A stretch of 64,000 nucleotides of DNA from Saprospiraceae bacterium (lineage in GTDB: Bacteria > Bacteroidota > Bacteroidia > Chitinophagales > Saprospiraceae). Position numbers and translations under genes: made by a program. Each line of letters starts with the position of its first letter. Within the stretch, counting starts at the first letter, position 1. This document shows, one piece after another, positions 36,121 to 63,788 of the stretch. The stretch is taken from assembly GCA_040397785.1 (NCBI GenBank), contig JBBAVI010000011.1, positions 12,930 through 76,929 of the forward strand, written 5' to 3'. A model generated the notes under the pieces. That model ran no database searches, was not told the origin of the DNA, and was given only the letters and a program-made list of their open reading frames with translations.

Positions 36121-36330
36121 GGTGTTTTAGGAGAAATATTGGGCTGCCGTTAAAAAGACTTGCAGCACTTTCATTTCAAACCTAAATCCTCCAAGCTTTT
36201 TTCGTACTTTCGCACCACTTTTCACACATACTAAATTTTTTGAGCCTTCTAAACGGATTTATAAGCGGAAAACGCTAAATTGCACACAAAACCAACAAAA
36301 TTAATTTCAACAAAGCAGGAAAAACGCTGC

Positions 36331-39300: not shown

Positions 39301-39561
39301 GGTACCGTGGCAGGTTGTATCGTACAAGAGGGCAAAATCAGCCGCAACCATTATGTGCGGATCATCCGCGATGGTATCGTGGTGTACCCAACCAATCCGA
39401 ACCAACATGCAGAACTCGCTTCGCTGAAACGTTTCAAAGAAGATGCGAAAGAGGTGAAAGCAGGCTTGGAATGTGGTTTGACCATCAAGAACTTCAACGA
39501 CATTAAAGACGGCGATGTAGTCGAATCTTATGTGATCAATGAAGTGAAAGCGACAATTTAA
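36331..39561 (+). CDS. infB: Translation initiation factor IF-2 with long Pro-rich/Gly-Asn-Gln-rich N-terminal extension
   Basis: The start was moved to [14 protein letters not shown] (IF2_N). GTPase motifs are [17 protein letters not shown] and NKID. Confidence 0.95.
37281..37391. repeat. In-frame tandem duplication inside infB (51-nt unit; first copy carries a 9-nt insert)
   Basis: The unit caaccagggcggacaaggcg[gacagggcg]gcaaccgcaaccaacaaggtggcggaaatcg occurs at 37281-37340 and is repeated at 37341-37391. It encodes NQGGQGG(QGG)[10 protein letters not shown]. Confidence 0.85.
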
Positions 39562-46229: not shown

Positions 46230-48518
46230 ATGAAAACGGGGAAAATATTTTTACTATCCTTCCTTTTTTGTTGCTCGGCACCCTTCTTGTGCGCGCAAAG
46301 TAACGAAGGCAACCATTTTTGGTTCGGATTTATGCAACACCACGATGTTGGCGAAAATTCGATGGTGGTGATGATTACCTCTAAGTATAACACCAGTGGG
46401 GTGGTGCGGATTCCATTGCACGCTTGGGAGGTCAGTTTTACCGTAAACGCCAATTCGGTAACCATTCTGCCGCTTCCTTCTTATGTGGAAAATTTGAATT
46501 CCGAAATCATTGATGATAATGGCGTGGAGGTGCTTTCCAATGCCCCTGTTTCGGTGTACATCCACCAGTATTATAAAAGTCGATCAGAAGCAACCCTGGT
46601 TTTGCCCATTTCCTCCTTGGGACAGGAATATTACATGATGAGTTACACCGGAAACCAGCAAGGTGCGGTGTACCCATCCGAATTTTTATTGTTGGGGATG
46701 GAGGATTCTACCAATATATCCATTACCCTGAGCGATGAGACGGAAAGTGGTAGACCTGCGGGCACCACCTATCAGATACAATTGCAAACCGGTGAAAGTT
46801 ACCTTGTGCAGGCCAAACAAGGCGCCGGTGATCTTACGGGAACCTATGTGAAAGGCGATAAAAAATTTAATGCACTTTCGGGTTCTGTGTGGACCGGCGT
46901 ACCCGTTAATTGCAGTTTCAGGGATAATTTGTTGGAGCAAATGTACCCGGTTCCTACTTGGGGCAAACAATTTGTAAGCGCCCCTTTTGCCCACATGCCC
47001 TACGATATTTTCAGGGTATTGGCCGCCGAGGATAGCACCATCGTAACAGTACAAGGTTCGGGAGTCCCGGTGCAATACAGCCTAAACAAAGGAGCATATG
47101 TGGAGTACCAGCGATCGGAACCCACCAAAATTACAGCAAATCACCCGATTGCCGTGGCACAATACCTGATTGGCAGCGCTTGTAGCGGGTACCCCGTTGG
47201 GGATCCTTCCATGATATTACTCAACAGTATTTCACAAATTCGAGATACTGTTACACTATATAATTCGTCGTTTGAGGAGATTGTAGAAAACTATATCAGC
47301 CTGATTGCCAAAACCGAAGACGTAAGTGCGATTTATTTAGATGGACAATTATTGAGTAATTTTAATGCGATCGTTCAGCCTGTTGGTGCGGATTCCAACT
47401 TTTCAGTTGTTACAATAGCGGTACAAGTCGGGCCGCATACCATTATTTCACAAGGGTGTGGGATAATCGCTTCCGCTTATGGGTACGGCTATCTGGAATC
47501 ATATGCTTACGGTGGCGGTGCAAATTTTAGCCGCATGGATGCCAATAACCTGATCCCGGAAGGCGGCTGTTTGACCGATTCGATTCTTTTTCAGACGGAT
47601 TTACAAATACCGCGTTTTAGTTTTAAATGGGATTTGGGCGATGGCACCAGCAGCGAGGCAGCAAGTTTTTATCATAAATATTCGGCAACGGGTATGTACA
47701 AGGTGCAATTATTCCGCACGGATCTATGCCTGAATACCACTGATACACTTGTCTATCCGGTTCAGATTACTTTGCGCCAGGCGGCAGTGGTACCGGAAGA
47801 TTCGGAAGTATGCGCTGGTGCAACCATTTCGTTGCGCGCCGACGATATTGCCGGCGCTACTTACCGCTGGAAAGGTCCCAATCAGTTTGTTGCATTTGAG
47901 CAAAATCCGGATTTACTTGCGGCCACCGTGGCGATGACTGGGCAATATGCCGTAGTTGGAACGGTAAATGGCTGTGAAAGTTATCCGGCTTATGCGCAGG
48001 TGCTCGTTCATCCGTTGCCCGAACCAGCCCTTGGAAGCGACACGTTTGTTTGTCCTGAGGAAAATATGCCGTTGACAGTACTGGATCCAGGCACATTTGA
48101 ACAATATCAATGGCAGGATCAATCGCGAAGCGCCACGTACACTGTTATAGAACCTGGTTTTTATGCGGTGCTGGTAAAAGATGAATATGATTGTTGGGGG
48201 AGCGACACCATCCGGGTTTCGACCATTTGCCCAACGAAATACTATATCCCGAATATATTTAGCCCGAATGATGACGGGATTAATGATTATTTTGAAGTAT
48301 TGGGTTCTGATATTCGAAGTTTAAACCTGCGTGTTTTTGATCGTTGGGGTAGTTTGGTGTTTGAAGGAACCCAGGCAACGGCGCGTTGGGATGGTAGTTA
48401 TCGTGGTAAGCCGCTAACGCCTGGCGTATACCCGTGGGTTGCCCAGATTGGTGCCTACAACAGCGATGGCAGCACCTATGAAGTGGAGGCACACGGCACG
48501 ATAACGTTGGTTAAGTAA
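46230..48518 (+). CDS. Large secreted adhesin-like protein with T9SS type-B (gliding-motility-associated) C-terminal domain
   Basis: 762 aa with a signal peptide and a PKD-like segment (FKWDLGDGTSS). The C-terminus is YYIPNIFSPNDDGINDYFEV...RVFDRWGSLVF...WDGSYRGKPLTPGVYPW. Confidence 0.8.
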   Translation: MKTGKIFLLSFLFCCSAPFLCAQSNEGNHFWFGFMQHHDVGENSMVVMITSKYNTSGVVRIPLHAWEVSFTVNANSVTILPLPSYVENLNSEIIDDNGVEVLSNAPVSVYIHQYYKSRSEATLVLPISSLGQEYYMMSYTGNQQGAVYPSEFLLLGMEDSTNISITLSDETESGRPAGTTYQIQLQTGESYLVQAKQGAGDLTGTYVKGDKKFNALSGSVWTGVPVNCSFRDNLLEQMYPVPTWGKQFVSAPFAHMPYDIFRVLAAEDSTIVTVQGSGVPVQYSLNKGAYVEYQRSEPTKITANHPIAVAQYLIGSACSGYPVGDPSMILLNSISQIRDTVTLYNSSFEEIVENYISLIAKTEDVSAIYLDGQLLSNFNAIVQPVGADSNFSVVTIAVQVGPHTIISQGCGIIASAYGYGYLESYAYGGGANFSRMDANNLIPEGGCLTDSILFQTDLQIPRFSFKWDLGDGTSSEAASFYHKYSATGMYKVQLFRTDLCLNTTDTLVYPVQITLRQAAVVPEDSEVCAGATISLRADDIAGATYRWKGPNQFVAFEQNPDLLAATVAMTGQYAVVGTVNGCESYPAYAQVLVHPLPEPALGSDTFVCPEENMPLTVLDPGTFEQYQWQDQSRSATYTVIEPGFYAVLVKDEYDCWGSDTIRVSTICPTKYYIPNIFSPNDDGINDYFEVLGSDIRSLNLRVFDRWGSLVFEGTQATARWDGSYRGKPLTPGVYPWVAQIGAYNSDGSTYEVEAHGTITLVK

Positions 48519-52157: not shown

Positions 52158-52487
52158 TTACCCAATAATCCGATCATCTTTTGCCGCATACCGCGCAAAA
52201 CCCAACAATGCCCCGGTCACCATGATGTTGCGGAATACATTTACCATTTCCAGTTCCATTTCTCGGGCAAGGTTTTCGGCCATAATTTCCGCACCAATTT
52301 CATGGCCCATGGCGCGTGGAATATGTACCAGCACGGCCATTAGGATCACATAAACCGACATACAGGTGTAGGCTAATTTGTCGTACTTACCGACCACTGC
52401 GCTGATGATAAACAGCGCGATACACAGTGCTGTGAAATAATTCCCAAAAAGCGCATCAGGACGCGGATATTTTAAAAGCGCAAGACT
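52158..52487 (-). pseudogene. 5'-truncated membrane-protein gene remnant (DoxX-like?)
   Basis: The minus frame is open from 52487, but there is no ATG before the GTG at 52397. The hydrophobic helices are NYFTALCIALFIISAVVG and SVYVILMAVLV. The frame runs into the antisense of the AraC fragment. Confidence 0.4.
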
Positions 52488-52789
52488 TTATAGAATCCAA
52501 TGCCCATCAAAAGATCACCGTTTCTGCGGTTTCTGAAAAAATGGCTATGAGTGAGCGCTCCTTTATTCGGCGCTTTAAATTGGCTACTGGCAATACGCCT
52601 TCCGAATATATTCAACGGGTAAAAGTAGAACACGCCAAACAACGCCTGGAGGAAGGGAAAGACAATATCAAGGAGGTTTCATACAGCACAGGGTATGAGG
52701 ATTTGAAGTATTTCCGCGATGTATTCAAGCGATATACCGGACTTACCCCTTTGGAGTATCGTCGTATGTTTTCTTTTGAGGGGCAATAG
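52436..52789 (+). pseudogene. AraC/GlxA-family regulator remnant: C-terminal HTH region only
   Basis: The open frame from 52436 reads ...DILKAQDFIESNAHQKITVSAVSEKMAMSERSFIRRFKLATGNTPSEYIQRVKVEHAKQRL...YEDLKYFRDVFKRYTGLTPLEYRR. This is a complete dual-HTH AraC C-terminus with no N-terminal sensor domain and no start codon before Met 52541. Confidence 0.6.
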
Positions 52790-52878: not shown

Positions 52879-55800
52879 CTAACGCAAAATCGTGATGATC
52901 GGAAAATCCTGTCCATAACCGTAACTTGACGGGTACTGCGGCGAACCTTTATACCGCGCCGTGACATCGGGTACTTTTTCCTGCAAATAAGCATCCAACT
53001 CCTTCACCGTCAGTTTTTTATCGCCGGTATCACCCGCACCTTTGAAGGCCTCCAGTAAACAATACGTAAATGCACCATGCCCCAATTGGGCAAACTCAGA
53101 AGCAAATTGTGCACTTCCAGAGGCCGTTAGCCAATGCGTGCCGGTGGAGCGGGCAAGTTGGGCAATGGCTTTTTCTTCGGCCGCACCCCGCGCCACAACC
53201 ACCTGCTCCAATGCGCCTGCCGACTGACAAGCATCCAGGATAAACAATTGTTTTTGGGCTTTTATTTCCTTCGAATAGCTTTGTAGTTCATTGGCACTCA
53301 GTCCTTTTTGCGCCAGGGCTTCATCATTTCCATACAACTGGGTTACATCTTGCGGCACCAGGAAAAAGGTCTTTTGATCGTTGATGACCCCATGACCGGC
53401 ATAGTAAAACAAGAACAAATCTTGTGGATTGGCGGTGGCTTTCACTTTATCGAGGGCCGCTACGATCCCCGCTTTTGTGGCTTGTTCGTTGGTGATAAAA
53501 ATGGTGTTTACCTTGCTAAAAATACTTTTAGCACCTTGTTCGATGGCATCTTTAAAGGCCAATGCATCCGCTTGTGCATAGTTCAGGCTGTATTTTGGGT
53601 TTTTATAGGTATTAATCCCGATGACCACCAAGTGCAATTGCAGACCACCCGTAGTGCTTGTATTTTTGTTTGATCCAGCCAGGAAAATCACCATCTCTGC
53701 CGGTACGGATTCGGTGCGTTGTTTGTTGATGGCGACTGCACGGATCGTGTTTTCACCGGGTAAAAGCGGGAGGGTGTATGATTTGTTAAATTGACTATTG
53801 CTGGCATTTTCCTCCTCTACGATCAGGTTGCGGGTGCTGGACTCGACCAATTTTCCATTCAGAAACAGTCGGATTTCGGCAATTTCACCGTCTTTGCTGG
53901 CTGCTTCCAGTTGGATATTTACCGAGGATTGCGTGGCGTCGTACACCTCCAATTTGGGGTCGTTGCGCTTTTTGCCACCGTTAAACATCATTTTGATGGT
54001 AGGAAGGGGCTTTAATTGCTTGATATTGGGCAGGTTTTGTGGCAAATTTTGGTCCCACACCTGGGAAAGTAAGCCCGGTACGTAATATTGCTCGTATAAA
54101 CTTTCCAGTGGAATAATTTCGTTACCCCGGCTGTAATACATTTTCTGCATAGCGCCCGCAGAAGCATCGAAGCGCCCATCGGGGGTAAAAACAACCCAGT
54201 CCTCGGTTTCTTCAAAAAGTAAAATCCGAGCCACCTGCCGCTTTTTTTCCAAATCGTATATGCTCAATCCGCTGCTTTCGGAAGTAACCAGGTAGCGTTC
54301 ATTGCGCATGAAAAAAACATCTCCGCCGCGCTCTTCCGGGCATTTAATCACATGGGTTTGCTTTTGGGTAATTACGTCTACAATGGCAAGGTCATCGCCC
54401 ACTGCATCATTTGTCTTGTTGTTAAGTTGCACCGCCGCTGTCTTTCCGGAAGGAGAAAGGGTCGTCCACCATTCCGTAGCCGGGAGTTGGCAGGTGGCTT
54501 TGTTGGGCGTTCCGGTGGCCGCATCCAGCCAGATCAGTTGATCTTTTTCGGTGAAACTGGCCGTTTTACCACCATTTTCGAACCGAACATTATCGAGCCA
54601 GTTGCCAACATGCTGCCAAAGGATCCGTTTACCCACTAAATCATAACAATACACCAAATCAAAACCTTCCGATCCATCGGTGCGAAAAAGCAGCCGTGAT
54701 TTGTCGGGCGAAAGGTCACAGATGTAATTATGGCCGCTTTCATACAACACGTAACCGCTGGAGGCTTCCGGTTTGGGCACAAAACTCCGCAGCTTGTAGT
54801 TTTTTAAGTCAATAATATAAATCCCTTCATTGGCCACAGCCGCCAGAAAACCTGCCGCCTCAAATATCCGCAAACCCACCAGTCCGACAGCTGGTATGGT
54901 TTCTATTTGTTTATAAACGAGTTCTTTGCTACTCGGATCAAATTCATACAATCCCTGGGTATTTACCACCACAAATCCGCGTTTGCCATCGGCGGTAAGT
55001 CGATAAACACAATTTGCATTTTCCACCGGTGCTTTAAACCGCTTCACATGCAGGCTATTTTGGTCAAAATACAACGCACGGTCTTGCAACCATAAGCCAT
55101 CGGTGTGTTGCATGGAATAATTTTGTTCGGCATGCAAAGGCGTGTATCCGTATTTACCTTGATACACGTCGCCCGGCATCGCATATTTACCCATCGTGAT
55201 CCCCATGATATAATATTTTCCAGACGGGGCAAAACGCAGGTTTTGGGGGCCATTTATACCGTAACCAGGATATTCGAATTTGCTGATGGCGCTTGCCGTA
55301 AAATTGCGCACATCAAAAATCCGGTATTCCCCCTGGTATTCGAGCGCAAGTTGGTTGGCATTAATTGGGTAGGCCTCCGTAATACTCATCGGATCTATAT
55401 CTGATTCGACGCGGAACAGCTCTAAAGATTTGCGTTTCGACTGGCCGCTGTTGGCGTCTAATTCTTCCAAAAAGAAGGTCTTTTCATCTTCACCAGAAAA
55501 GGCCAGTAAATTGCCATTGGGCAGGTAAGTGTACGGAAAGGTTTTTTTATCGTAATTTTTTACTAACTTTTTGGTATTCAGGTTGATAATACGCGTTCCC
55601 ATCACCTGATCGTACAAAAGCAATTGTTGCTCATCGAGGCTCAGGCTTAGGCGGTTGATGGCGTGGGTGGCCATGGTTTTTACCGTATAGGCGTATATCG
55701 TGGACGAAATTCCTGTTGCAAGGGTAATTTTTTGCACAAAAAGGTTGTCATATTGCGCCGTTTCGCGGCCGCCGCCATACAACGTTTTCCCATCGGCGGA

Positions 55801-56178
55801 AAAAATCAGCGTTCCCAGGGTATGGGCTAATTTGATTTTTTGCGTCAACACAAAACGATTGAGGTTGTATAGGTACAAGGTATCGGCGTTTTGGAAAGCC
55901 AGCCATTGATTATCGGAACTTACCGTGAGTATATGCTCAAAGTTGAGTTGTCGGCCGCCAGTGTATGTAGGGAACATGATGTTTTTGAGCAGCCGTCGGG
56001 TTTCGTTTTCCCAAATTTTTATTTCTGAAGCCCCCGCTGTAATCAGGTATTTTTCATCATGTGTAAAAACAACATTATCAGCATAGTGCCGTGCGGGAAA
56101 AATCAATGCTGGCGCTTCTGTTTGTGCCAGAGAAACAAAAGCCTGAAGCAAAAGTAGAATGGAAAAGAGGTATTTCAT
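52879..56178 (-). CDS. Secreted beta-propeller (WD40-like) protein with C-terminal caspase-like C14 peptidase domain
   Basis: 1099 aa with the signal peptide MKYLFSILLLLQAFVSLAQ. About 800 aa are repeat-rich and beta-propeller-like, followed by an Ig-like segment and then a caspase fold. The His motif is FYYAGHG (His codon 53392-53394). The Cys motif is FILDACQSAG (Cys codon 53227-53229). Confidence 0.8.
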   Translation of the reverse strand: MKYLFSILLLLQAFVSLAQTEAPALIFPARHYADNVVFTHDEKYLITAGASEIKIWENETRRLLKNIMFPTYTGGRQLNFEHILTVSSDNQWLAFQNADTLYLYNLNRFVLTQKIKLAHTLGTLIFSADGKTLYGGGRETAQYDNLFVQKITLATGISSTIYAYTVKTMATHAINRLSLSLDEQQLLLYDQVMGTRIINLNTKKLVKNYDKKTFPYTYLPNGNLLAFSGEDEKTFFLEELDANSGQSKRKSLELFRVESDIDPMSITEAYPINANQLALEYQGEYRIFDVRNFTASAISKFEYPGYGINGPQNLRFAPSGKYYIMGITMGKYAMPGDVYQGKYGYTPLHAEQNYSMQHTDGLWLQDRALYFDQNSLHVKRFKAPVENANCVYRLTADGKRGFVVVNTQGLYEFDPSSKELVYKQIETIPAVGLVGLRIFEAAGFLAAVANEGIYIIDLKNYKLRSFVPKPEASSGYVLYESGHNYICDLSPDKSRLLFRTDGSEGFDLVYCYDLVGKRILWQHVGNWLDNVRFENGGKTASFTEKDQLIWLDAATGTPNKATCQLPATEWWTTLSPSGKTAAVQLNNKTNDAVGDDLAIVDVITQKQTHVIKCPEERGGDVFFMRNERYLVTSESSGLSIYDLEKKRQVARILLFEETEDWVVFTPDGRFDASAGAMQKMYYSRGNEIIPLESLYEQYYVPGLLSQVWDQNLPQNLPNIKQLKPLPTIKMMFNGGKKRNDPKLEVYDATQSSVNIQLEAASKDGEIAEIRLFLNGKLVESSTRNLIVEEENASNSQFNKSYTLPLLPGENTIRAVAINKQRTESVPAEMVIFLAGSNKNTSTTGGLQLHLVVIGINTYKNPKYSLNYAQADALAFKDAIEQGAKSIFSKVNTIFITNEQATKAGIVAALDKVKATANPQDLFLFYYAGHGVINDQKTFFLVPQDVTQLYGNDEALAQKGLSANELQSYSKEIKAQKQLFILDACQSAGALEQVVVARGAAEEKAIAQLARSTGTHWLTASGSAQFASEFAQLGHGAFTYCLLEAFKGAGDTGDKKLTVKELDAYLQEKVPDVTARYKGSPQYPSSYGYGQDFPIITILR

Positions 56179-56217
56179 GTTGGAATATTTGATTGTTTAT
56201 AACCGCTGCGCTGAATT

Positions 56218-57213
56218 TTACTCTTTACCCGTTTCAATTTTTACCCCAAAACGGTTGCCGCCCAAGGCATACAATTGAATTTTAAGCAACACACCAAGAT
56301 CTTGATCGTCAAAGGTTTGTACTTTCCAAACATGGGTATTGCCCGTATTGGTGCTGTATGCTGCTTTGTACACCAGGCGGTATTCCAGACCTTCGAGGCT
56401 TGCAATACTTTTCAAGGTTTCATCGTAATAGGTACGGGCCTCGTTCAGCGCATCAAAGTTCCTTCTGGCTTCCAGGCGCCATTGCCCGGCGGCATTTTTG
56501 CGAATAATGGTTTGTTCGGCGCCATCAAAAGCAATGGCTGCGATAAATTCATCTTTTTTACCTTCAATCGGGGTGGCCCGCAAGTCTTTAAGATCCTGCT
56601 CCGCCGCACTTTTCAGGTAGGTATTAAGCGCCAGGGTTTGGGTTTCATCGGCTTTAGGCGCCGGAGCAACACCGTCCTCAACGGGCTCGTCGTTAAACAG
56701 GTTGTCCGGCACATCAAAGCTGGGTTCTTGGGCAAATTCAGTATCCGGCAGGTTGGCAGCAATAACGATTTTATTGTTAAAAAACCAAAGCATTGAAACC
56801 GTGCCCTCTGCTGTTTTATTCAATAACCAGTGGTTGGCAAGGCTGGGATGGGTGGCGGGACCTAAATCGGCCGTAAGCAAAGCCTCCAACGTATCGGCGT
56901 CTTCAAATTCAAAAATTACCTCGTACAAAGGCCGGTAACCATCCATGTCAAAAATATAAGAGATGCCCAGCAAACCTTTTTCCTGGATAGGCCAGTAATA
57001 CTCCTGGCGAAAATTAATGCCGCTGTCCACTTTTTTAACCGGAAAACGGCGGCTCAGAAAAGTATCTAAAGGCGTAGTGATCGGCACATTTTGGTTGGCC
57101 GTAACGGTGGCAAAAATTTCACCATACTCCTTTCTGGTAGCACCGCTTTGGGCATAGATTAAATCATTGAAAATCAAAAAAATATACAGAATATGCAGGA
57201 TTCGCTTGTTCAT
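56218..57213 (-). CDS. Secreted hypothetical protein
   Basis: 331 aa with the signal peptide MNKRILHILYIFLIFNDLIYAQ. No family recognised. It is co-directional with its neighbours, with 39- and 41-nt gaps. Confidence 0.6.
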   Translation of the reverse strand: MNKRILHILYIFLIFNDLIYAQSGATRKEYGEIFATVTANQNVPITTPLDTFLSRRFPVKKVDSGINFRQEYYWPIQEKGLLGISYIFDMDGYRPLYEVIFEFEDADTLEALLTADLGPATHPSLANHWLLNKTAEGTVSMLWFFNNKIVIAANLPDTEFAQEPSFDVPDNLFNDEPVEDGVAPAPKADETQTLALNTYLKSAAEQDLKDLRATPIEGKKDEFIAAIAFDGAEQTIIRKNAAGQWRLEARRNFDALNEARTYYDETLKSIASLEGLEYRLVYKAAYSTNTGNTHVWKVQTFDDQDLGVLLKIQLYALGGNRFGVKIETGKE

Positions 57214-57254
57214 GTTGCGACAGATTTATTTGAAAAAAGGAGCATGTGCAAGGA

Positions 57255-58991
57255 TTATAAAGAAAAGCCCAGGGTCATACCCATACGTATTTGAAAACCC
57301 CAATAGGTTTCTTTTCGGGCAGATAAAAAGGCGTTGCTGAAATTGTAATCGGCGCGCGGATAGGCAGGGTTGTTGAGGTCGAACAGGTTATACGTGGCGC
57401 CCAAGCCAAAGTAGAAATCGGCGCCAAAGGGGCGGTGCTGCCAAAGTTGTCCAAAATTCAACATAACACCATAAGCGGTAAGTTTTGGGGTAAAAGGCAA
57501 GTCTGTGGTGATCGCAACACCACTCGTTTTATCTAGTACGGCACTCATTTGAGGCTGATAATTGCGTTCATTGTAGGTAAGCAAAAAGCCACTATACCCG
57601 CGGGATGCACTACGCTCGGATTTCAATTTTTTGTATCCGAAGTGGGCATAGAAACCGTCCCAATGCGGGTTCGGGAAATCTGTCAGGTTATCGGCATTGC
57701 TCAGCCGCTCGTTCTGGAGGTAATCCTGGTCATTTTTGGCCTTCATGTAAGAAAACTCGAGCATCGATTGGCCAATTGGAAGGTTGATCACGCCGCCTAA
57801 ATCAATATATTGCGGACGTTGCACTATGCGTAAAACATAAGCGCCTACATACATACGGTTTCTGTTGGCGCGTTTTGCGGCCCGCTCTTGCCGTTTTTGG
57901 GCTTCCTGGGCGCGCTTTTGGGCTGCTGCGCGGCATCGATTGGCTGTTTCCTCGATGGCTTTCGCTTTGTTGACATCCCCAAATTTTTTAAAATAAGCCG
58001 CCAGGCGCTCATATTCTGCACAATTGTCGGAGCCGATTTGTGGTAAAATTTTATTGCAAAATTTCCAGCCGCCTGCCGATTCACCCGCCTGTTCAAATAA
58101 GGGCAACAAATCCCAGCATTGCGCATTGGTAAAACCGTAACCCAAATCCAGGGCCTGGCTGTAAAACTGGCCGGCCAGGGCATTCATATCGCCTGAACGG
58201 TGCAAATCCTCCGCAATTGAAAACGAGGCCGACCCGTTTTTATCCCAACCCACAGGGGCCGATTTACCGGTGAGGAACAAATCCGCCACGGATTTCAGGA
58301 GCACGGTACCAAAATTAACCCGATTCATATCAGCCCGTTGGGTTGCATCCATTTTGGCGTACAAATCAATCATTTTTCGGGCTTGATCTATTTTACCTGG
58401 TTTTTCTACGGTAAAGTCATACAGGTACTTATGCATAAAAAATGTTACTACATAGTATCCTTCCGGTTGTAGATCAAATACCTTTTGCGCATATTTTCTC
58501 AAATTGACGGCATCTGTCTTTTTGAAATAGTATTCGGCCAATTCGCCATAAAAGCGCTGTCGGGTTTGCAAAAAGGCAGTATATTCAATGACAAATGCCT
58601 TTCCGCCGGATTGATACCGAAAAGGGAATTCGGTAGGGCCCAGTCGATCGAATTCGCTTTCAATGGATTTTAGTAGCTGGTCGCCTAGGCCTGTATCCGT
58701 GTTGCCCAGTTTGTTGTAGTACACTTCCGCCCGCAAATGGACCAGCACTGCCAGGAAATATTTTGCGGTACGCTTTTCTTCTGCCGTTCCTTTTTTGAGC
58801 ACGCTTTTCAGGAGTATTTCGGCATTATCCGCTAGTTTTAACAAACTGGCAGGATCTACATCCGGTTTAGTGGAGGATTCGGTGATGGTTTGATAAACGC
58901 GGACTGCATTTTCGAGTTGCTGCTCGGTTTGTGCCATAGCAGTCAAGTGCAACATGGTGAGCATGCTGCCAATCAAGTAGTATTTTTTCAT
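57255..58991 (-). CDS. Secreted hypothetical protein: N-terminal helical (TPR-like) region, basic coiled coil, C-terminal beta-rich (possible outer-membrane barrel) region
   Basis: 578 aa with the signal peptide MKKYYLIGSMLTMLHLTAMAQ. The central segment is AAAQKRAQEAQKRQERAAKRANR. The last ~200 aa show alternating aromatic/Gly strand patterns and end in ...RMGMTLGFSL. Confidence 0.6.
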   Translation of the reverse strand: MKKYYLIGSMLTMLHLTAMAQTEQQLENAVRVYQTITESSTKPDVDPASLLKLADNAEILLKSVLKKGTAEEKRTAKYFLAVLVHLRAEVYYNKLGNTDTGLGDQLLKSIESEFDRLGPTEFPFRYQSGGKAFVIEYTAFLQTRQRFYGELAEYYFKKTDAVNLRKYAQKVFDLQPEGYYVVTFFMHKYLYDFTVEKPGKIDQARKMIDLYAKMDATQRADMNRVNFGTVLLKSVADLFLTGKSAPVGWDKNGSASFSIAEDLHRSGDMNALAGQFYSQALDLGYGFTNAQCWDLLPLFEQAGESAGGWKFCNKILPQIGSDNCAEYERLAAYFKKFGDVNKAKAIEETANRCRAAAQKRAQEAQKRQERAAKRANRNRMYVGAYVLRIVQRPQYIDLGGVINLPIGQSMLEFSYMKAKNDQDYLQNERLSNADNLTDFPNPHWDGFYAHFGYKKLKSERSASRGYSGFLLTYNERNYQPQMSAVLDKTSGVAITTDLPFTPKLTAYGVMLNFGQLWQHRPFGADFYFGLGATYNLFDLNNPAYPRADYNFSNAFLSARKETYWGFQIRMGMTLGFSL

Positions 58992-58992
58992 A

Positions 58993-59637
58993 TCAGATGA
59001 TTCCTTTGCGACGGGCCTGTTCGACGGCGGCGGTTTTATTGTTTACCTGAAGTTTTCTGTAAACATGTTCAATATGGGTTCGTACGGTGCCGGTCGAAAC
59101 AATTAGGTTGTTGGCTACTTGTTGGTAGCTCAGACCTCGGCTCAATTGTTCTAAAATTTCAACTTCGCGGGGAGTAAGATTATGTTCGGGCGTTTCGGCG
59201 GGCGGGGTGCCCCGACGCATCATTTGTAGTGCTTTTCGGGCAACGGCGGGCGACATTGGTGCGCCGCCTTCCAATGCTTCATGGAGGTTGCGGTGTAAAC
59301 TTTCTGGTGTTTCATCTTTTAACAAATAACCATCGGCACCCGCAAGAATGGCATCAAAAATGTGGTTTTCATCTTCAAAAACCGTTGCCATCACCACTTT
59401 TACCTGTGGATACAGATCTTTAAGCGCCTGGGTGGCCACAATTCCATTCATTTCAGGCATATTAATATCCATCAGCACCAAATCGGGTTTGTGGAAGCAG
59501 CCTTCGAGCCATTGCAGCAGCAAGCGGCCATTCATGGCCACGTGCACCACCTGAAAATCGGCAGAGGCCTCTACATTTTCCTGTAACATCCGCGCCAAAC
59601 GCGGCAGGTCTTCAGCAATGGCGATGTGGTATGGCAT
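58993..59637 (-). CDS. NarL/LuxR-family response regulator
   Basis: The start was moved to MPYHIAIAEDLP. It has a REC domain (LVLMDINMPEMNG) and a LuxR HTH (LTPREVEILEQLSRGLSYQQVANNLIVSTGTVRTHIEHVYRKL). The stop codon is 1 nt from the next gene's start. Confidence 0.9.
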   Translation of the reverse strand: MPYHIAIAEDLPRLARMLQENVEASADFQVVHVAMNGRLLLQWLEGCFHKPDLVLMDINMPEMNGIVATQALKDLYPQVKVVMATVFEDENHIFDAILAGADGYLLKDETPESLHRNLHEALEGGAPMSPAVARKALQMMRRGTPPAETPEHNLTPREVEILEQLSRGLSYQQVANNLIVSTGTVRTHIEHVYRKLQVNNKTAAVEQARRKGII

Positions 59638-59688
59638 GCGTGGACTGGGTTTGCGGCTGCTTATTTCGAAGCAACCTGTTCTACACGA

Positions 59689-59739
59689 CAAAGGTAGGCT
59701 TCCTTTTCTTGTCGGCTTATCCGACGAATATCGGATATT
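59689..59739 (-). promoter_or_regulatory. Candidate regulated promoter: 22-bp palindrome TATCCGACGAATATCGGATATT, 21-nt spacer, -7 box TACCTTTG
   Basis: The palindrome is at 59718-59739 (inverted repeat TATCCGA/TCGGATA) and the box at 59689-59696, 51 nt upstream of the regulator ATG. A near-identical module occurs at 63122-63172. Confidence 0.5.
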
Positions 59740-59750
59740 GCGGGTAAGGC

Positions 59751-61544
59751 TTAGGGTGTGCGCAAAGGCACCAGGATCGTTATCGATGTTCCCGTATCGG
59801 GTATGCTGGAGATATTGCAAGTGCCGCCAATTTCGACGGCGCGCTGGCGCATATTTTGCAGGCCATAGCCCATGGTAAGTTGCGTGTCTATCTGGAATCC
59901 TTGGCCATTATCATACAGCACCATGCGCAATTGCGGCTCCTGGAGGTCGAACAAAATATGCACTGCATCGGCAGCAGCATGTTTGATGGCATTGGTGATG
60001 CCTTCCTGGGCAATACGGTACAAGTTGAGCAAAATGCCAGGACTGAGTATCAGCGACTCTAAATCGGATTTGCAGGTGATATTTACTTCAACCTGGGTGT
60101 TTTTACCTGCAAATTCGCTTATTTTGGTCAATAATTCCTGCAATGGAGCATCCTGGGTTTGAATGGCCCAGATCGTTTCCCGCAATTGCTGCATGGCGGT
60201 TCGCGTATTGTCCACAATATTTTTTAGGGCATTTTGTTGCGTTTGATCGCCGGTACGCTGCACCTGGCGGGTCAGTTCCGATCCGATCAGGGTCAATTCG
60301 GCCCCTAAATTGTCGTGCAGGTCGCGGCTGATGCGCAGTCGTTCTTCCTGCAGTCCGTTGTACATTTCGGCCCGAAGCAGTTCTTCCTGCAGTTGGGCTT
60401 CCCGTTGCAATTGGGCTTGTTTTTCGCGTTGCCGTTTGATCAGCACAGATCCAACAGCGATACTCAGCAGCAACAGCCCAATCAATGCTAACAGCCAAAA
60501 ATTCCGGCTGCGCACCCGCAATTGTTCCCGAATGAGGTCCTTTTCTTTCCGGGCCGTTTCGTATTTAGTTTGCATTTCTGCAATCTGTCGGCTGCGGTTA
60601 ATGTTAAAAAGGCTGTCTTTAAGGGAATTGCTCAAGTTAAGCCAGTGGAGTGCTTCTTTAAAATTGCCGCTTTCTTGCTCGCATTTCGCCAGCATTTCGA
60701 GGTTATATTGCCGTAAAGCCAGAAAATTGATGCTCGACGCGATGGCTAAACTTTTTTCAAAATAGGCTTTTGCGTCTTTGTAACTGGCTGCTACCAGGTA
60801 CGCTTCCCCAATGTTGCAATAATTGACGGCCATACCTTGTTTGTCGCCCATTTTTGCCCGAATTTGCGTCGATTGTTCGATCAAATCAATCGCCAAGCGC
60901 GTATTCCCTGCGTCAGAGGCGACGGAAGCGAGGTTATTTAACACATATCCCAGTCCGATACTATCGCCAATGGCCTGCCGGATCGAAAATACGCGCAAAA
61001 ACAATTCCTGCGCCTGAGGCCATTCATTGTGCTGCATGGCTATGATGCCCCGATTATCGAGTGCCGTTGCCAGCAAACTCGAATCCCGGGCTTTCAAGGC
61101 TGCCTGCTCTGCGGCTACCGTATATTGTACCGCCTTTTCTTGTTCCTTAAAACGGGAATAATAAATGGCCATTTCATTGAGCACCGAGGCTTTGCCTGCC
61201 TCCTCGCTCAAGGCTTCGAAAAGGTCGAGCGCCTGCTGGTAATAACCCAGTGCTAATTCATATTTTCCTAGCAAATAGTAGTTTACCCCCAGGTTTTTGA
61301 GGGTTTTGGCCTCTAATAATCGGAGTTTGTCGTTCCGTGCAATGGTGAGCGCACGTTCTCCCAACACCTTACCCTGTTCGAAATCGGCCGATGAAATCGC
61401 GTAAAACCGTGCATTAATCAGCGTTACCTGTGCCTCCGGGGCAAGATTGGGCAAGGCTGCCAGTACTGAGTCAAGCGTAGTTTGTGCCTGGCAGCCGACC
61501 GCCAGGCACAAACAAACTATCCATGTCAGTATCCGTTTTTGCAA
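59751..61544 (-). CDS. Sensor histidine kinase (HisKA_3/NarX type) with signal peptide and extracytoplasmic TPR sensor domain
   Basis: 597 aa with a TTG start 2 nt after the upstream stop. The signal/lipobox is CLCLAVGCQAQ. About 330 aa are TPR-like repeats. One TM helix is present (FWLLALIGLLLLSIAVGSVLI), then the H-box RISRDLHDNLGAELT and an HATPase_c domain (DNGQGF...GYGLQNMRQRA). Confidence 0.85.
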   Translation of the reverse strand: MQKRILTWIVCLCLAVGCQAQTTLDSVLAALPNLAPEAQVTLINARFYAISSADFEQGKVLGERALTIARNDKLRLLEAKTLKNLGVNYYLLGKYELALGYYQQALDLFEALSEEAGKASVLNEMAIYYSRFKEQEKAVQYTVAAEQAALKARDSSLLATALDNRGIIAMQHNEWPQAQELFLRVFSIRQAIGDSIGLGYVLNNLASVASDAGNTRLAIDLIEQSTQIRAKMGDKQGMAVNYCNIGEAYLVAASYKDAKAYFEKSLAIASSINFLALRQYNLEMLAKCEQESGNFKEALHWLNLSNSLKDSLFNINRSRQIAEMQTKYETARKEKDLIREQLRVRSRNFWLLALIGLLLLSIAVGSVLIKRQREKQAQLQREAQLQEELLRAEMYNGLQEERLRISRDLHDNLGAELTLIGSELTRQVQRTGDQTQQNALKNIVDNTRTAMQQLRETIWAIQTQDAPLQELLTKISEFAGKNTQVEVNITCKSDLESLILSPGILLNLYRIAQEGITNAIKHAAADAVHILFDLQEPQLRMVLYDNGQGFQIDTQLTMGYGLQNMRQRAVEIGGTCNISSIPDTGTSITILVPLRTP

Positions 61545-61546
61545 AT

Positions 61547-63040
61547 TTAGTTGTGTGTTATTTCCACCATCAGCGGCACCACGGTACCCTGATGTTTAAC
61601 TTTTTTTACTTGAAATCCAATTTCGTCCAAAGCGTAACTGACTTCCGACGGGAGGATTAATTGATCACCCAGGGCGGCTTTGATTTTTTGCGATAAACCG
61701 CCCGCCGTTTGGTTCATTTTATTTAGTATTTGAGCCGTATTGAGCGGTCCCTGGCTGTATAAAATCAGCATATAGTCCGTACCCGCTTGTTGGTCCATTT
61801 TTACAATTTTTGTTTCAGAAGGGAAGGCCACTTCACTTTCGGCTCCGATGTGCGGCGACATATTATCGTCAAAAGGCAGGATTTTATTCACTTTGCCTGA
61901 CAAATCGGTTGCGAAGGCGTAAATATAAGATTCTGAATTGGTAGTAATGTAAAATCTAAATTTAGTGCCACTTGAATAGGCTTCATCCATGCGGTAGGCC
62001 ATCAAATCTTCTTTGTAAGCAGGCGTATCATCTTCTACAATCAGGTTGCGGGTGAGGATCCGGTTGGCAGGCATTTGGGCACCCGTATTGGTTTGAAAAC
62101 GCACTTTTCCTGCCAACAACACATCCATAACCGGGTCGATCGGGCTCGGCGTTGGAGTAGGTGCGGGTGTCGGCGTAGGCTCAGGCTGTACAACGGTAGC
62201 AGGATAAGCCTGGATTGCAATCAGAGAATATTCGGCAAAATCTTTGTATTTTATCCATACAAAACCGCCATCGCCCCAAGTACTGCCCCAGCTGTTGAGC
62301 ACCCGAAATGCGCCCCCGTATTGATTGTCATCATACCCAACGATGCACATAGCGTGCCGTCCGTGTTGTCCGGTTGGACCATCGTCGGTCGCCAAGGGTT
62401 CCCAGAGTGCTTTGGAATTGTAAAATGATTCGGTTACCAAAAAGCCCAGCATGCAGGGATAACCTTCTGAAAGCGCTTTTTTCACACTGTTTATTTTTAT
62501 GGAAGCGTCTATTTCATCGGGCAAATAAAGGATCTGGTAGTCGGCAATGCGAAAATCAAAACCTTCGAGCATGGCTTCCACGGCCACGGATGCGCCACAT
62601 TGATAAGGCATGGTTTGGTTGGTGGCAACCCCCAGGTTTTTCATCAGTTCAAAAGCGTCGACCGGGTTGGTACCTTCCTGGCAATTGACATCCCCTTCAG
62701 CCTTGATTTGTTCGTATACGTAAGAGGGCGAAAAGATGCGCTGGTTGATTTTTGAGGAGCTTGTGATATTGTTTTGTTTGGCCCATAAAATGGTACGCAA
62801 ATGATAGGCCACCGAAAAAGCCACGCAAGTGCTGTATTGTCCCTGATCGCCCGGTGTTGGGCAGAATTTTTCGAGGGAAGCCGCCCTAGGCATGGCCTTA
62901 TAACTTTGAGTGGTGAGTTTGGCTTTGTAGGGGATGGTCCGCAGTGTAGGCGGATCAAAGATCATTCCGGTAGTTTTTTTTTGGGCAAAAACGGTCGTAG
63001 CTGCCAACAAGAGCGCAGCAAGCAAAGTAACATGTTTCAT
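61547..63040 (-). CDS. Secreted papain-like (C1) cysteine peptidase with Pro/Thr linker and C-terminal DUF4384-like domain
   Basis: 497 aa with a signal peptide. The catalytic Cys context is GDQGQYSTCVAFS (Cys codon ~62825-62827). The His/Asn contexts are GRHAMCIVGY and VLNSWGSTWGDGGFVWI. The linker is PEPTPTPAPTPTPSP. The tail (YSSGTKFRFYITTNSESYIYAFATDLSGKVNKILPF) resembles DUF4384. Confidence 0.75.
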   Translation of the reverse strand: MKHVTLLAALLLAATTVFAQKKTTGMIFDPPTLRTIPYKAKLTTQSYKAMPRAASLEKFCPTPGDQGQYSTCVAFSVAYHLRTILWAKQNNITSSSKINQRIFSPSYVYEQIKAEGDVNCQEGTNPVDAFELMKNLGVATNQTMPYQCGASVAVEAMLEGFDFRIADYQILYLPDEIDASIKINSVKKALSEGYPCMLGFLVTESFYNSKALWEPLATDDGPTGQHGRHAMCIVGYDDNQYGGAFRVLNSWGSTWGDGGFVWIKYKDFAEYSLIAIQAYPATVVQPEPTPTPAPTPTPSPIDPVMDVLLAGKVRFQTNTGAQMPANRILTRNLIVEDDTPAYKEDLMAYRMDEAYSSGTKFRFYITTNSESYIYAFATDLSGKVNKILPFDDNMSPHIGAESEVAFPSETKIVKMDQQAGTDYMLILYSQGPLNTAQILNKMNQTAGGLSQKIKAALGDQLILPSEVSYALDEIGFQVKKVKHQGTVVPLMVEITHN

Positions 63041-63121
63041 AAGGACGATCGGATCGTAAGTTTCGAAATACGCGAGGGCCGCCTGAGCATTCGGCGCTCA
63101 AGCAACAATGCGATAGTCAAA

Positions 63122-63172
63122 CAAAGGTCGGGGTAGTAGGGCAGCGGGCCTATCCGATGTTTATCGGATATT
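63122..63172 (-). promoter_or_regulatory. Second copy of the palindrome module: TATCCGATGTTTATCGGATATT, 21-nt spacer, GACCTTTG box
   Basis: The palindrome at 63151-63172 matches 59718-59739 at 19 of 22 positions. The box at 63122-63129 lies 81 nt upstream of the C1 peptidase ATG. Confidence 0.45.
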
Positions 63173-63175
63173 AGC

Positions 63176-63553
63176 GTTGGCTCAAGTCCAGACACTAGGA
63201 TACTTTTTGTAAGTAAGGCCTACGTTGGGAAGGAACACGACTACGCATTATTAAAGGCAGCGTTCCCTTGCGCGATACCTTGGTTTAAGAATTTTATCGT
63301 ACGATTGGATTCTGGTTATCAAGGTTTTCAGTCAGATTACGAATCTTAAAAAAGTTACCTACCACATAAGAAGTCGAAAAAGAAGGAACTAACTGATGGA
63401 CAAAAAAATTAAAATTAAGTGGCTGCTAGGGAACGAATAAAAGTTGAGCACAGCACAGGTGGATTAAAACGTTATCGAATTCTAAGTGAACGCACAAGAA
63501 TTAAGGATTTTGTCTTATTTGATGAAATTATTGGTATTTGTGCAGGCTTATAG
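63176..63553 (+). pseudogene. Decayed, 5'-truncated DDE transposase gene (IS5/Harbinger-like DDE_Tnp_4 type)
   Basis: A single frame reads ...ILFVSKAYVGKEHDYALLKAAFPCAIPWFKNFIVRLDSGYQGFQSDYES*KSYLPHKKSKKKELTDGQKN*N*VAARERIKVEHSTGGLKRYRILSERTRIKDFVLFDEIIGICAGL*. It has the D(x)GYQG and R-I-K-V-E-H motifs, three in-frame TAA stops and no N-terminal third. Confidence 0.65.
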
Positions 63554-63650
63554 AATTACACTAAAATCAACACAAATGATTGATTGTAATCATGTCACCA
63601 ACTCTATTAATTATGGGATAAAAGTACTATGCATTGTTTATAAATAAAAG

Positions 63651-63788
63651 GGGTTCCACGGAGAAGCTTGGAGGGACGGAGTTACGCGGAGAAAAAAGGG
63701 TTCCACGGAGAAGCTTGGAGGGACGGAGTTACGCGGAGAAAAACTCTGTGCAACTCCGTCCCTCCAAGCTTCTCCGTGGAACCCTTTT
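63651..63788. repeat. Composite repeat: two perfect 46-bp direct copies plus an inverted partial copy forming a ~35-bp perfect hairpin
   Basis: The unit gggttccacggagaagcttggagggacggagttacgcggagaaaaa occurs at 63651-63696 and 63698-63743. The reverse complement of its first 31 nt lies at 63754-63784. The stem 63694-63728 pairs with 63754-63788. Confidence 0.9.

Follow-up and report, generated by a model that had tools for sequence, protein, structure and literature searches.

To our knowledge, bacterial caspase homologues have been studied almost only as cytoplasmic proteases of cell death or immunity. The family Saprospiraceae is rich in such homologues, with 28 of them in Haliscomenobacter, and multi-caspase operons are found in the Bacteroidetes (PMC3501461); a 2012 survey of prokaryotic caspase operons reports proteases and signalling genes as their neighbours in general (PMC3501461). 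The domain DUF4384 is described in the literature as often fused to protease domains, and some Csx30 proteins, themselves substrates of a caspase-like protease, have it as their C-terminal domain. In the present work, we have completed comparative analyses of a cluster of six genes in a stretch of 64,000 nucleotides (nt) from a Saprospiraceae bacterium (GenBank assembly GCA_040397785.1, contig JBBAVI010000011.1, positions 12,930 to 76,929; hereafter the window), whose products are a papain-like C1 peptidase with a DUF4384 tail (C1-DUF4384 peptidase), a sensor histidine kinase, a NarL-type response regulator, two proteins of 578 and 331 amino acids (aa), and a caspase homologue with an N-terminal beta-propeller (propeller-caspase). 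As judged from sequence comparison, the conserved unit within this cluster is the pair of C1-DUF4384 peptidase and propeller-caspase, and the window holds its most elaborate form. A first-pass annotation of the window, made from its sequence alone, had known of no described system of this composition, and the literature on DUF4384 and on bacterial caspases has likewise yielded no published description of the cluster.

The protease pair and its distribution

The conservation of the cluster was followed from three anchors (viz. the 578-aa family, the 331-aa family, and the DUF4384 tail of the C1 peptidase), and the search of metagenome contigs with the DUF4384 tail identified 40 additional loci. 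Clustering of the loci at 85% identity resulted in 29 lineages, 24 of which are evaluable, having at least 1.5 kb of downstream sequence. A caspase with the propeller, Ig-like and caspase domains of the window protein is present within the locus of the C1-DUF4384 gene in 23 of these 24 lineages, usually as the next gene and in 1–3 tandem copies. This count runs from the C1-DUF4384 side; the caspase-anchored loci (L029–L032) are mostly cut at contig or locus ends. Upstream of the pair the genes differ from locus to locus and frequently have housekeeping functions; examples are those for Mfd and an E1 dehydrogenase (identified by Pfam) and for leucyl-tRNA synthetase and the ribosomal proteins S12 and S7 (recognised from their N-terminal sequences).

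The other members of the cluster are shared less widely. A NarL-type two-component system is found in the locus in 9 of the 29 lineages and the 331-aa gene in 8 of the 29, the gene order of these accessories is rearranged between lineages, and the kinases possess three different types of sensor (TPR, 7TMR-DISM, and Reg_prop/Y_Y_Y). The earlier view of all six genes as one unit must hence be narrowed to a core of two proteases, with the 578-aa gene being lineage-specific. At least four of the six genes nevertheless co-occur repeatedly, as the first-pass annotation had proposed to look for, in about 8 independent lineages (from Saprospiraceae, Chitinophagales, Lentimicrobiaceae, and Bacteroidales). 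Other genes accompany the pair in particular groups of loci. Two extra genes are located between the C1 peptidase and the caspase in L010, L011, L018, L020, and L038, one for an unknown protein of ~195 aa and the other for a protein of 340–368 aa that itself contains a DUF4384 domain (E = 2e-6). In L039, L041, L055, L059, and L060, where the two-component system is lacking, the caspase genes are followed by the gene for a conserved protein of ~466 aa with a signal peptide and without a Pfam match.

The propeller-caspase consists of a signal peptide (cleaved between SLA and QT), a beta-propeller of ~700 aa, an Ig-like domain (residues ~720–845), and a Peptidase_C14 domain (PF00656; residues 851–1084, E = 2.4e-16, 60.6 bits against a cut-off of 21.4), N-terminal of which Pfam returns weak WD40/propeller matches. 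Its catalytic His (in the motif YYAGHG) is invariant in 20 homologues and its catalytic Cys (DACQS) is retained in at least 80% of the same 20 sequences, which include open reading frames (ORFs) cut at locus ends. Metacaspases have an Asp two residues before the catalytic Cys, and because the same residue is present here, the caspase is probably specific for Arg/Lys. The C14 domain is 50–79% identical across lineages and the propeller mostly ~22–45%; some of the homologues bear Big_7 or PDZ domains, and relatives of the caspase are annotated in Mucilaginibacter, Ginsengibacter, and Flavobacteriaceae. No relative of the caspase domain alone was found in the PDB by phmmer.

In the C1-DUF4384 peptidase, a signal peptide (cleaved between VFA and QK) and a short segment at the N-terminus precede the papain-like C1 domain (PF00112; E = 1.4e-13, 51.9 bits against a cut-off of 20.7), which a Pro/Thr linker joins to a DUF4384 domain (PF14326; residues 355–431, E = 2.4e-9, 37.6 bits with a cut-off of 27); the C-terminal extension behind it is conserved. 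Across 13 homologues the catalytic Cys (GDQG...TCVAF), His (HAMCIVGYDD), and Asn (NSW) do not vary; the catalytic set also includes a Gln 6 residues N-terminal of the Cys, as seen in the window protein alone. Both proteases thus keep the catalytic residues that had been noticed in them. Among solved structures, 3ois_A, which was deposited under the name 'Cysteine protease', is the closest to the C1 domain (E = 4e-13, aligned over residues 25–269), and a profile search of the PDB with an alignment of the DUF4384 tail gave no match. This tail is usually better conserved than the catalytic domain to which it is joined (48–71% identity in distant lineages, against 38–68% for the C1 domain), and it has the motif SGTKFRF[YF].

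Within the window, the six genes form a co-directional block of ~10.3 kb on the minus strand (52879–63172, Table 1), with gaps of 2, 113, 1, 41, and 39 nt in the order from C1-DUF4384 to caspase. The ORF coordinates agree in this with the first-pass annotation, and the same six genes are called by an independent gene caller on the identical public contig (L001); Pfam returns each of the domains that had been named (C14, C1, DUF4384, HisKA_3, and GerE). The window is chromosomal, with the gene for IF-2 at 36280–39561, and the genomes nearest to it are metagenome-assembled genomes (MAGs) of Saprospiraceae. No paralogues of the cluster genes are present elsewhere in the 64 kb. GenBank members of the same 90% clusters (Saprospiraceae bacterium) are labelled 'hypothetical protein' or 'response regulator transcription factor'.

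Export and the accessory protein families

Each of the five proteins other than the regulator has a basic n-region, a hydrophobic core, and an Ala-Gln cleavage motif, in agreement with the signal peptides previously assigned to all of them; these features were judged by inspection. Cleavage between Ala and Gln is the Q-rule signature of signal peptidase I substrates in Bacteroidetes (PMC5837995). A C-terminal sorting domain for type IX secretion (Por_Secre_tail or CHU_C) was found in none of the six proteins at E ≤ 0.01 in Pfam or NCBIfam, and there is no lipoprotein among them; a periplasmic location of the proteases, and not secretion, is therefore the most likely. The organism itself uses type IX secretion, as follows from the CHU_C domain of a 762-aa protein encoded in the window (46230–48518), which also possesses IgGFc_binding and PKD domains. 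The exported proteins of the cluster are thus probably located in the periplasm or the outer membrane. The earlier description of the proteases as secreted was overstated, and of the envelope or extracellular proteolytic module that had been suggested, the envelope part is the more likely one, given that a type IX secretion signal is absent.

The 331-aa protein has no match in Pfam or NCBIfam. The structure predictions that the first-pass annotation had called for gave models of this protein and of the 578-aa protein at a predicted local distance difference test (pLDDT) score of 85 and 79, respectively. In the predicted structure of the 331-aa protein, the signal peptide is followed by two alpha+beta domains (A, residues ~27–165; B, residues ~190–331) with an acidic disordered linker between them; comparison with PDB folds gave nothing at E < 1e-3, only weak similarities of START, PsbP, Flpp3, and SciW-like type, and a profile search of the PDB with the family alignment gave no match. 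The family comprises 26 clusters, and a profile search of 1.84 billion representatives with it resulted in ~20 strong matches (E up to 1e-30), which are mostly full-length. Among 185,579 species genomes it is found at 15 loci, all in Bacteroidota MAGs (Saprospiraceae, Chitinophagales, Lentimicrobiaceae, and Bacteroidales), and no relatives were found in viral contigs. The propeller-caspase adjoins the 331-aa gene in about 12 of 14 independent lineages from four Bacteroidota families or orders, and these loci usually also hold the C1-DUF4384 gene and a NarL-type two-component system.

One protein (P0178) is a natural fusion, in which a signal peptide, domain A, and a short linker are followed by the propeller of this caspase family from the N-terminus of the mature caspase (34% identity, E = 2e-40, the match beginning at caspase residue 25). 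Both domain B and the signal peptide of the caspase are absent from P0178, which is therefore a genuine domain fusion and not a simple read-through. This fusion argues that domain A works on the propeller, and the 331-aa protein is a putative partner of the propeller-caspase. Domain A is also widespread as standalone lipoproteins of ~160 aa that have no Pfam family, with more than 100 representatives at 50% clustering; examples are P0187, P0189, P0200, P0205, and P0222, which have the motif DFR.EY...YYFD..G.PLYE.I.EY...FG.PN..EW...W.F.NK..I.....TEW.

The 578-aa protein, which is likewise without a match in Pfam or NCBIfam, consists in the AlphaFold model of a signal peptide, a TPR-like helical solenoid (residues 22–376), a long helix, and a C-terminal beta-barrel of ~180 residues (397–576). 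Comparison of the model with PDB folds gave generic TPR matches and nothing at E < 1e-3, and a profile search of the PDB with the family alignment gave no match. The barrel is probably an outer-membrane anchor, and the model suggests that the protein is a periplasmic scaffold anchored in the outer membrane. This family is small, with 13 clusters among 5.8 billion proteins. Its gene stands beside the protease pair only in close relatives of the window; elsewhere it is found without the proteases of the pair, either alone (L002), after an orthologous regulator (L004), or after an M16 peptidase (L005–L007). As a conserved core member the 578-aa protein was consequently rejected, and its separation from the proteases outside the near relatives of the window marks it as accessory and lineage-specific.

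The two-component system, candidate operators, and mobility of the cassette

The kinase contains five stretches of TPR_12 (E = 1.5e-33) followed by HisKA_3 and HATPase_c domains, and the regulator contains Response_reg (E = 6e-23) and GerE (E = 5e-16) domains and scores 135 bits with the NarL model. Both have the complete domain sets of the HisKA_3/NarL type, and the H-box His of the kinase (DLHD) and the receiver Asp of the regulator (LVLMDINMP) are read from the translations. In the kinase, a signal peptide or N-terminal anchor precedes the TPR array (residues ~22–350), after which one strong transmembrane helix (351–369) is followed by KRQREK; from this single helix and the basic segment behind it, the TPR array is extracytoplasmic, as had been stated.

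Two predicted operators, O1 and O2, are located before the two proposed transcription units of the cluster (Table 1). The palindrome that they share (TATCCGAT-N4-ATCGGATA), allowing up to 3 mismatches, is found at 2 sites in the 64 kb, where 0.18 would be expected by chance; both of them occupy promoter positions of this cluster, each at a fixed distance from a box resembling TAnnTTTG, the Bacteroidota -7 consensus. O1 and O2 sites with the same 21-nt spacing are also present in L014, L003, L008, and L009, where the surrounding and spacer sequences are not conserved; in L003 and L008 even the coding DNA has no more than ~66–76% identity. In an alignment of 9 promoters from 5 loci, the layout of palindrome, 21-nt spacing, and nAnnTTTG is invariant, and the palindrome and TTTG are the sole invariant blocks of sequence. 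L004 has an orthologue of the regulator (72% identity) beside a 578-aa homologue and with no proteases near, and here too the palindrome, in a copy with two mismatches, precedes the regulator start by ~40 nt; site and regulator hence travel together. The regulator is probably the protein that binds these palindromes. With the -7 box taken to extend from about -12 to -5, the centre of the palindrome would lie near -43 by our estimate, and LuxR-type activators bind 20-bp palindromes near -42, e.g., the lux box. The dedicated two-component control that had been suggested for the cluster is in this way supported by a conserved candidate operator before both transcription units, and this comparative footprint is the only informative promoter evidence.

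Other regulatory arrangements are seen in related loci. In L010 (~3520–3560) and L018 (~1040–1075), which have a different NarL-type regulator, another conserved motif is shared upstream of the C1 gene (GGTAAAyACCyTAGACAAA, then GACTTTTG), as would be expected, which suggests a second operator type for the protease module. A gene for a TPR-guanylate/adenylate cyclase takes the place of the histidine kinase in L004 (7523–9280), beside the orthologous regulator and the 578-aa homologue, and hints that the regulator and the 578-aa protein can be wired to a different signalling enzyme. A gene for a sigma factor of the extracytoplasmic function type is found near the caspase arrays of L013, L031, L065, and L066 and may be an alternative regulatory input.

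The block 52879–63172 is shared, as determined by BLASTN, by the window, L014 (90.9% nucleotide identity), and L033/L034 (~88%), and no similarity of the flanks beyond it was found between the window and these loci. The flanks of L014 and L034 are alike, and the block is located on opposite sides of a 3.3-kb segment in them (A-block-B-C in one arrangement and A-B-block-C in the other). In all three contexts the block begins a few bases before O1 and ends at the stop codon of the caspase gene, from which it follows that the cassette relocates as a unit, within surroundings rich in repeats. The accessory island that the first-pass annotation had proposed is thus recovered as an exact block in three different positions. 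No terminal repeats or target duplications were seen at the ends of the cassette, and it does not qualify as an insertion sequence or transposon, there being only a degenerate half transposase on one side and no terminal repeats at the block ends.

The flanks of the cassette in the window are as had been described, with a dead transposase and repeats on one side and a deletion scar on the other. Next to the transposase remnant, at 63646–63788, a 47-nt element (AAAAGGGGTTCCACGGAGAAGCTTGGAGGGACGGAGTTACGCGGAGA) is present in two tandem direct copies and one inverted copy that could form a long hairpin; it looks like an intergenic repeat of the repetitive extragenic palindromic (REP) type. On the other side, the AraC-family fragment is located head-to-head with a 5'-truncated fragment of a membrane-protein gene on the minus strand (together 52165–52789), an arrangement that is consistent with deletion of both 5' ends and of the promoter region shared by them. 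In the related Saprospiraceae genomes, repeat arrays (GTCTGAACGGGGATTTGGG...GGATTTTGGGATTT and its complement) adjoin the cassette (L034, 2200–2900; L014, 3600–4010) and may promote the rearrangements that move the block. A short sequence just before flank segment C of L014 (19500–19530, ATTTGCGTTAA) resembles the last bases of the caspase gene (ATTTTGCGTTAG) and may be a microhomology or the remnant of a former cassette junction.

Table 1. Coordinates of the cluster genes, predicted regulatory sites, and flanking gene remnants in the window.
Feature	Position	Strand	Characteristics
C1-DUF4384 peptidase gene	61547–63040	minus	497 aa; first of the six genes
Sensor histidine kinase gene	59751–61544	minus	597 aa; TTG start 2 nt past the C1-DUF4384 stop codon
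NarL/LuxR-type response regulator gene	58993–59637	minus	214 aa, counted from MPYHIA
578-aa protein gene	57255–58991	minus	578 aa
331-aa protein gene	56218–57213	minus	331 aa
Propeller-caspase gene	52879–56178	minus	1099 aa; last of the six genes
Operator O1 (predicted)	63151–63170		Upstream of the C1-DUF4384 gene; perfect 20-bp palindrome, in full TATCCGATGTTTATCGGATA
-7-like box of P1	63122–63129	minus	GACCTTTG; exactly 21 nt downstream of O1
Operator O2 (predicted)	59718–59737		Within the 113-nt kinase-regulator gap; O1 palindrome with one mismatch
-7 box of P2	59689–59696	minus	TACCTTTG; exact TAnnTTTG; 21 nt downstream of O2, 51 nt upstream of the regulator ATG
DDE_Tnp_4 transposase remnant	63218–63560	plus	C-terminal half with three in-frame stops; ~45 nt beyond the left cassette boundary
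AraC-family DNA-binding domain (deletion scar)	52436–52789	plus	HTH_18, E = 1.5e-24; lacks the N-terminal domain; just beyond the right boundary

Proposed mechanism, rival explanations, and comparison with described systems

The reading that we favour, with moderate confidence, is that the cluster is a self-regulated cassette for an inducible proteolytic module of the cell envelope, most likely of the periplasm. In the proposed mechanism, the kinase would sense an extracytoplasmic cue via its periplasmic TPR array and phosphorylate the NarL-type regulator, a dimer of which would bind the 20-bp palindrome at both promoters; P1 would drive the genes for the C1-DUF4384 peptidase and the kinase and P2 those for the regulator, the 578-aa protein, the 331-aa protein, and the caspase, with positive feedback and co-induction of all of the exported proteins as the outcome. 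The products would cross the inner membrane by Sec, be cut by signal peptidase I before Gln, and stay in the periplasm, where the 578-aa protein would be anchored to the outer membrane by its C-terminal barrel. The divergent and often duplicated propellers may then select substrates, and the 331-aa protein may bind the propeller through domain A as an adaptor, chaperone, or inhibitor. On the basis of their co-occurrence, the C1-DUF4384 peptidase and the propeller-Ig-caspase would work as an obligate pair. That the two assemble into a complex, or act as a cascade of zymogen activation, with the highly conserved DUF4384 tail docking on the caspase protein, is a tentative proposal that we hold to be possible and no more. 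A fuller version of it, in which the propeller-caspases are ligand-gated sensor proteases of a periplasmic cascade and DUF4384 couples them, as a module for docking or cleavage, to a second protease that acts as executioner, appears to us rather unlikely; if true, it would be a periplasmic counterpart of activation of the apoptosome or inflammasome type, with envelope remodelling, defence, or cell death as its output.

Several observations weigh against the favoured reading. Two thirds of the loci with the protease pair have no two-component system within 10 kb, and regulation by this system is therefore a feature of particular lineages and not of the core. The link between regulator and palindrome comes from position and co-occurrence, and a sigma-70 promoter scan, an intrinsic-terminator scan, and a count of bare TAnnTTTG in the window performed no better than on shuffled sequence. 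The fusion of domain A to the propeller is represented by one protein, which is possibly cut at its C-terminus and is without genomic context, and no conserved processing site was demonstrated for a cascade of the two proteases. The location of the proteins and their signal peptides were judged without a dedicated predictor, and release in outer-membrane vesicles may occur. The evidence throughout is drawn from sequence inference.

Other explanations of the cluster deserve consideration beside an inducible envelope module. Chance or a purely historical adjacency of unrelated genes could account for the finding of the full six-gene order only in close relatives (L001, L003, L014, L015, L033, and L034), but this explanation is already contradicted by the comparative data and is extremely improbable, given that the pair is found again in 23 of 24 lineages, its flanks differing, that the accessories recur in rearranged order with different kinase types, that one operator is common to both promoters, and that a natural gene fusion joins two of the components. 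It is unlikely, in our estimation, that the cluster is an envelope conflict or cell-death module, in which propeller-caspases would be periplasmic receptors for invading proteins (competitor toxins or phage components) or for envelope damage and would carry out destructive proteolysis together with the C1 peptidase. The caspase domain is indeed closest to the caspases that belong to NTPase-linked conflict systems (caspase_w_EACC1, E = 3e-27; 'caspase' in PADLOC), the distribution is patchy by the 331-aa marker (15 loci in 185,579 species genomes), the cassette occupies three contexts and adjoins a transposase remnant, and tandem arrays of up to three paralogues have conserved caspase domains and divergent propellers. 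However, the caspase_w_EACC1 score of 95 does not reach the cut-off of 140, the domain searches of the six cluster proteins and the Pfam tables for the gene-called related loci revealed no EACC1, NTPase, or other conflict partner, no defence-system model matched beyond generic domains, and no relatives of the 331-aa protein were found in viral contigs; propellers that diverge faster than catalytic domains are, moreover, expected even without an arms race.

A role of the two enzymes as maturation proteases, which would trim or activate specific periplasmic precursors in the manner of the Arg-gingipain processing of fimbrial subunits under Porphyromonas FimS/FimR, is distinctly unlikely in our view. 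The layout of the kinase is that of FimS, with a periplasmic TPR array and then a membrane helix (with a match of 83 bits across this part), enzymes of the caspase fold typically process proteins at specific sites, and the high conservation of the caspase and DUF4384 domains suggests a conserved target; yet no candidate substrate gene (fimbrial subunit, adhesin, or lipoprotein) is conserved beside the pair, the sensor types of the kinases differ between lineages, and the score with the FimS model is far under its cut-off. We regard as quite improbable a nutritional role, in which imported proteins or peptides would be degraded in the periplasm after induction by peptides that the TPR domain senses. 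Such a role would suit the host family, which has known protein hydrolysers among its members, as well as the frequent binding of peptides by TPR domains and the PDZ domains of some caspase homologues, which recall those of periplasmic degradative proteases. Against it, a TonB-dependent, SusC/SusD-type, or peptide transporter is conserved in none of the loci, caspase-family enzymes are usually specific endopeptidases and not bulk degraders, and the module is rare even among protein-degrading Bacteroidota.

The favoured reading, that of an inducible proteolytic module of the envelope, would place a caspase homologue outside the cytoplasm and tie it to a papain-like partner through DUF4384. DUF4384 accompanies many proteases, and the pair offers a concrete route to learning its role; two uncharacterised families (331 aa and 578 aa) are defined, and the operator and its regulator form a testable pair. 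The system is compact, with two genes at its minimum, and the palindrome, the two catalytic cysteines, and a predicted protein contact provide handles on it. Saprospiraceae are abundant in freshwater and wastewater, and regulated envelope proteolysis in them could matter for feeding, competition, or filament turnover.

In comparison with known systems, no system was assigned to the cluster by PADLOC, which gave generic caspase, TPR, and helix-turn-helix matches only, and the loci are not Sus-like, no SusC/SusD-type pair being conserved in 72 related loci. The caspase shares with bacterial caspase homologues (orthocaspases and metacaspase-like C14 proteins) the C14 fold, the His/Cys dyad, propellers of the WD40 type, and tandem paralogues, but it differs from them in being exported and in having the propeller N-terminal of the caspase domain with an Ig-like spacer between the two; its pairing with a C1-DUF4384 peptidase is absent from the 2012 survey (PMC3501461). 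The best-scoring curated caspase subfamily is that of the EACC1-associated caspases (NF047832, E = 3.4e-27), from which our protein is separated by its score (95.3 bits, below the cut-off of 140), by the lack of an EACC1 or NTPase partner in the cluster, and by a location that is extracytoplasmic rather than cytoplasmic. The C1 peptidase resembles 3ois, which we take to be xylellain of Xylella fastidiosa, in its short N-terminal segment in place of a long prodomain, and differs from it in its signal peptide and its 200-aa tail containing DUF4384. The type III-E CRISPR Craspase (the TPR-CHAT protease Csx29 with its substrate Csx30) offers an analogy, as a caspase-fold protease with a partner in trans that in some variants has a C-terminal DUF4384 domain; Craspase is, however, cytoplasmic and RNA-guided, and there is no sequence relationship beyond DUF4384.

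The control of the cluster likewise resembles known systems in part. The kinase shares with FimS/FimR of Porphyromonas gingivalis a TPR array in the periplasm with a membrane helix behind it, in a system that controls envelope proteins; the match to FimS (NF053520) covers the TPR and transmembrane region only and its 82.8 bits, against a cut-off of 600, do not make the kinase a member, the output genes are different, and other lineages of the cassette use 7TMR-DISM or Reg_prop/Y_Y_Y sensors. With the LuxR/NarL family of activators the cluster has in common a GerE regulator, a HisKA_3 kinase, a 20-bp inverted repeat just upstream of a core promoter element, and a layout that implies autoregulation, whereas the sequence of the palindrome and its fixed distance of 21 nt from the Bacteroidota -7 box appear to be specific to this regulator lineage. 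The parts of the cluster thus come from known families (C14, C1, DUF4384, and HisKA_3/NarL), and what is new is the conserved core pair, the two protein families, and the candidate operator.

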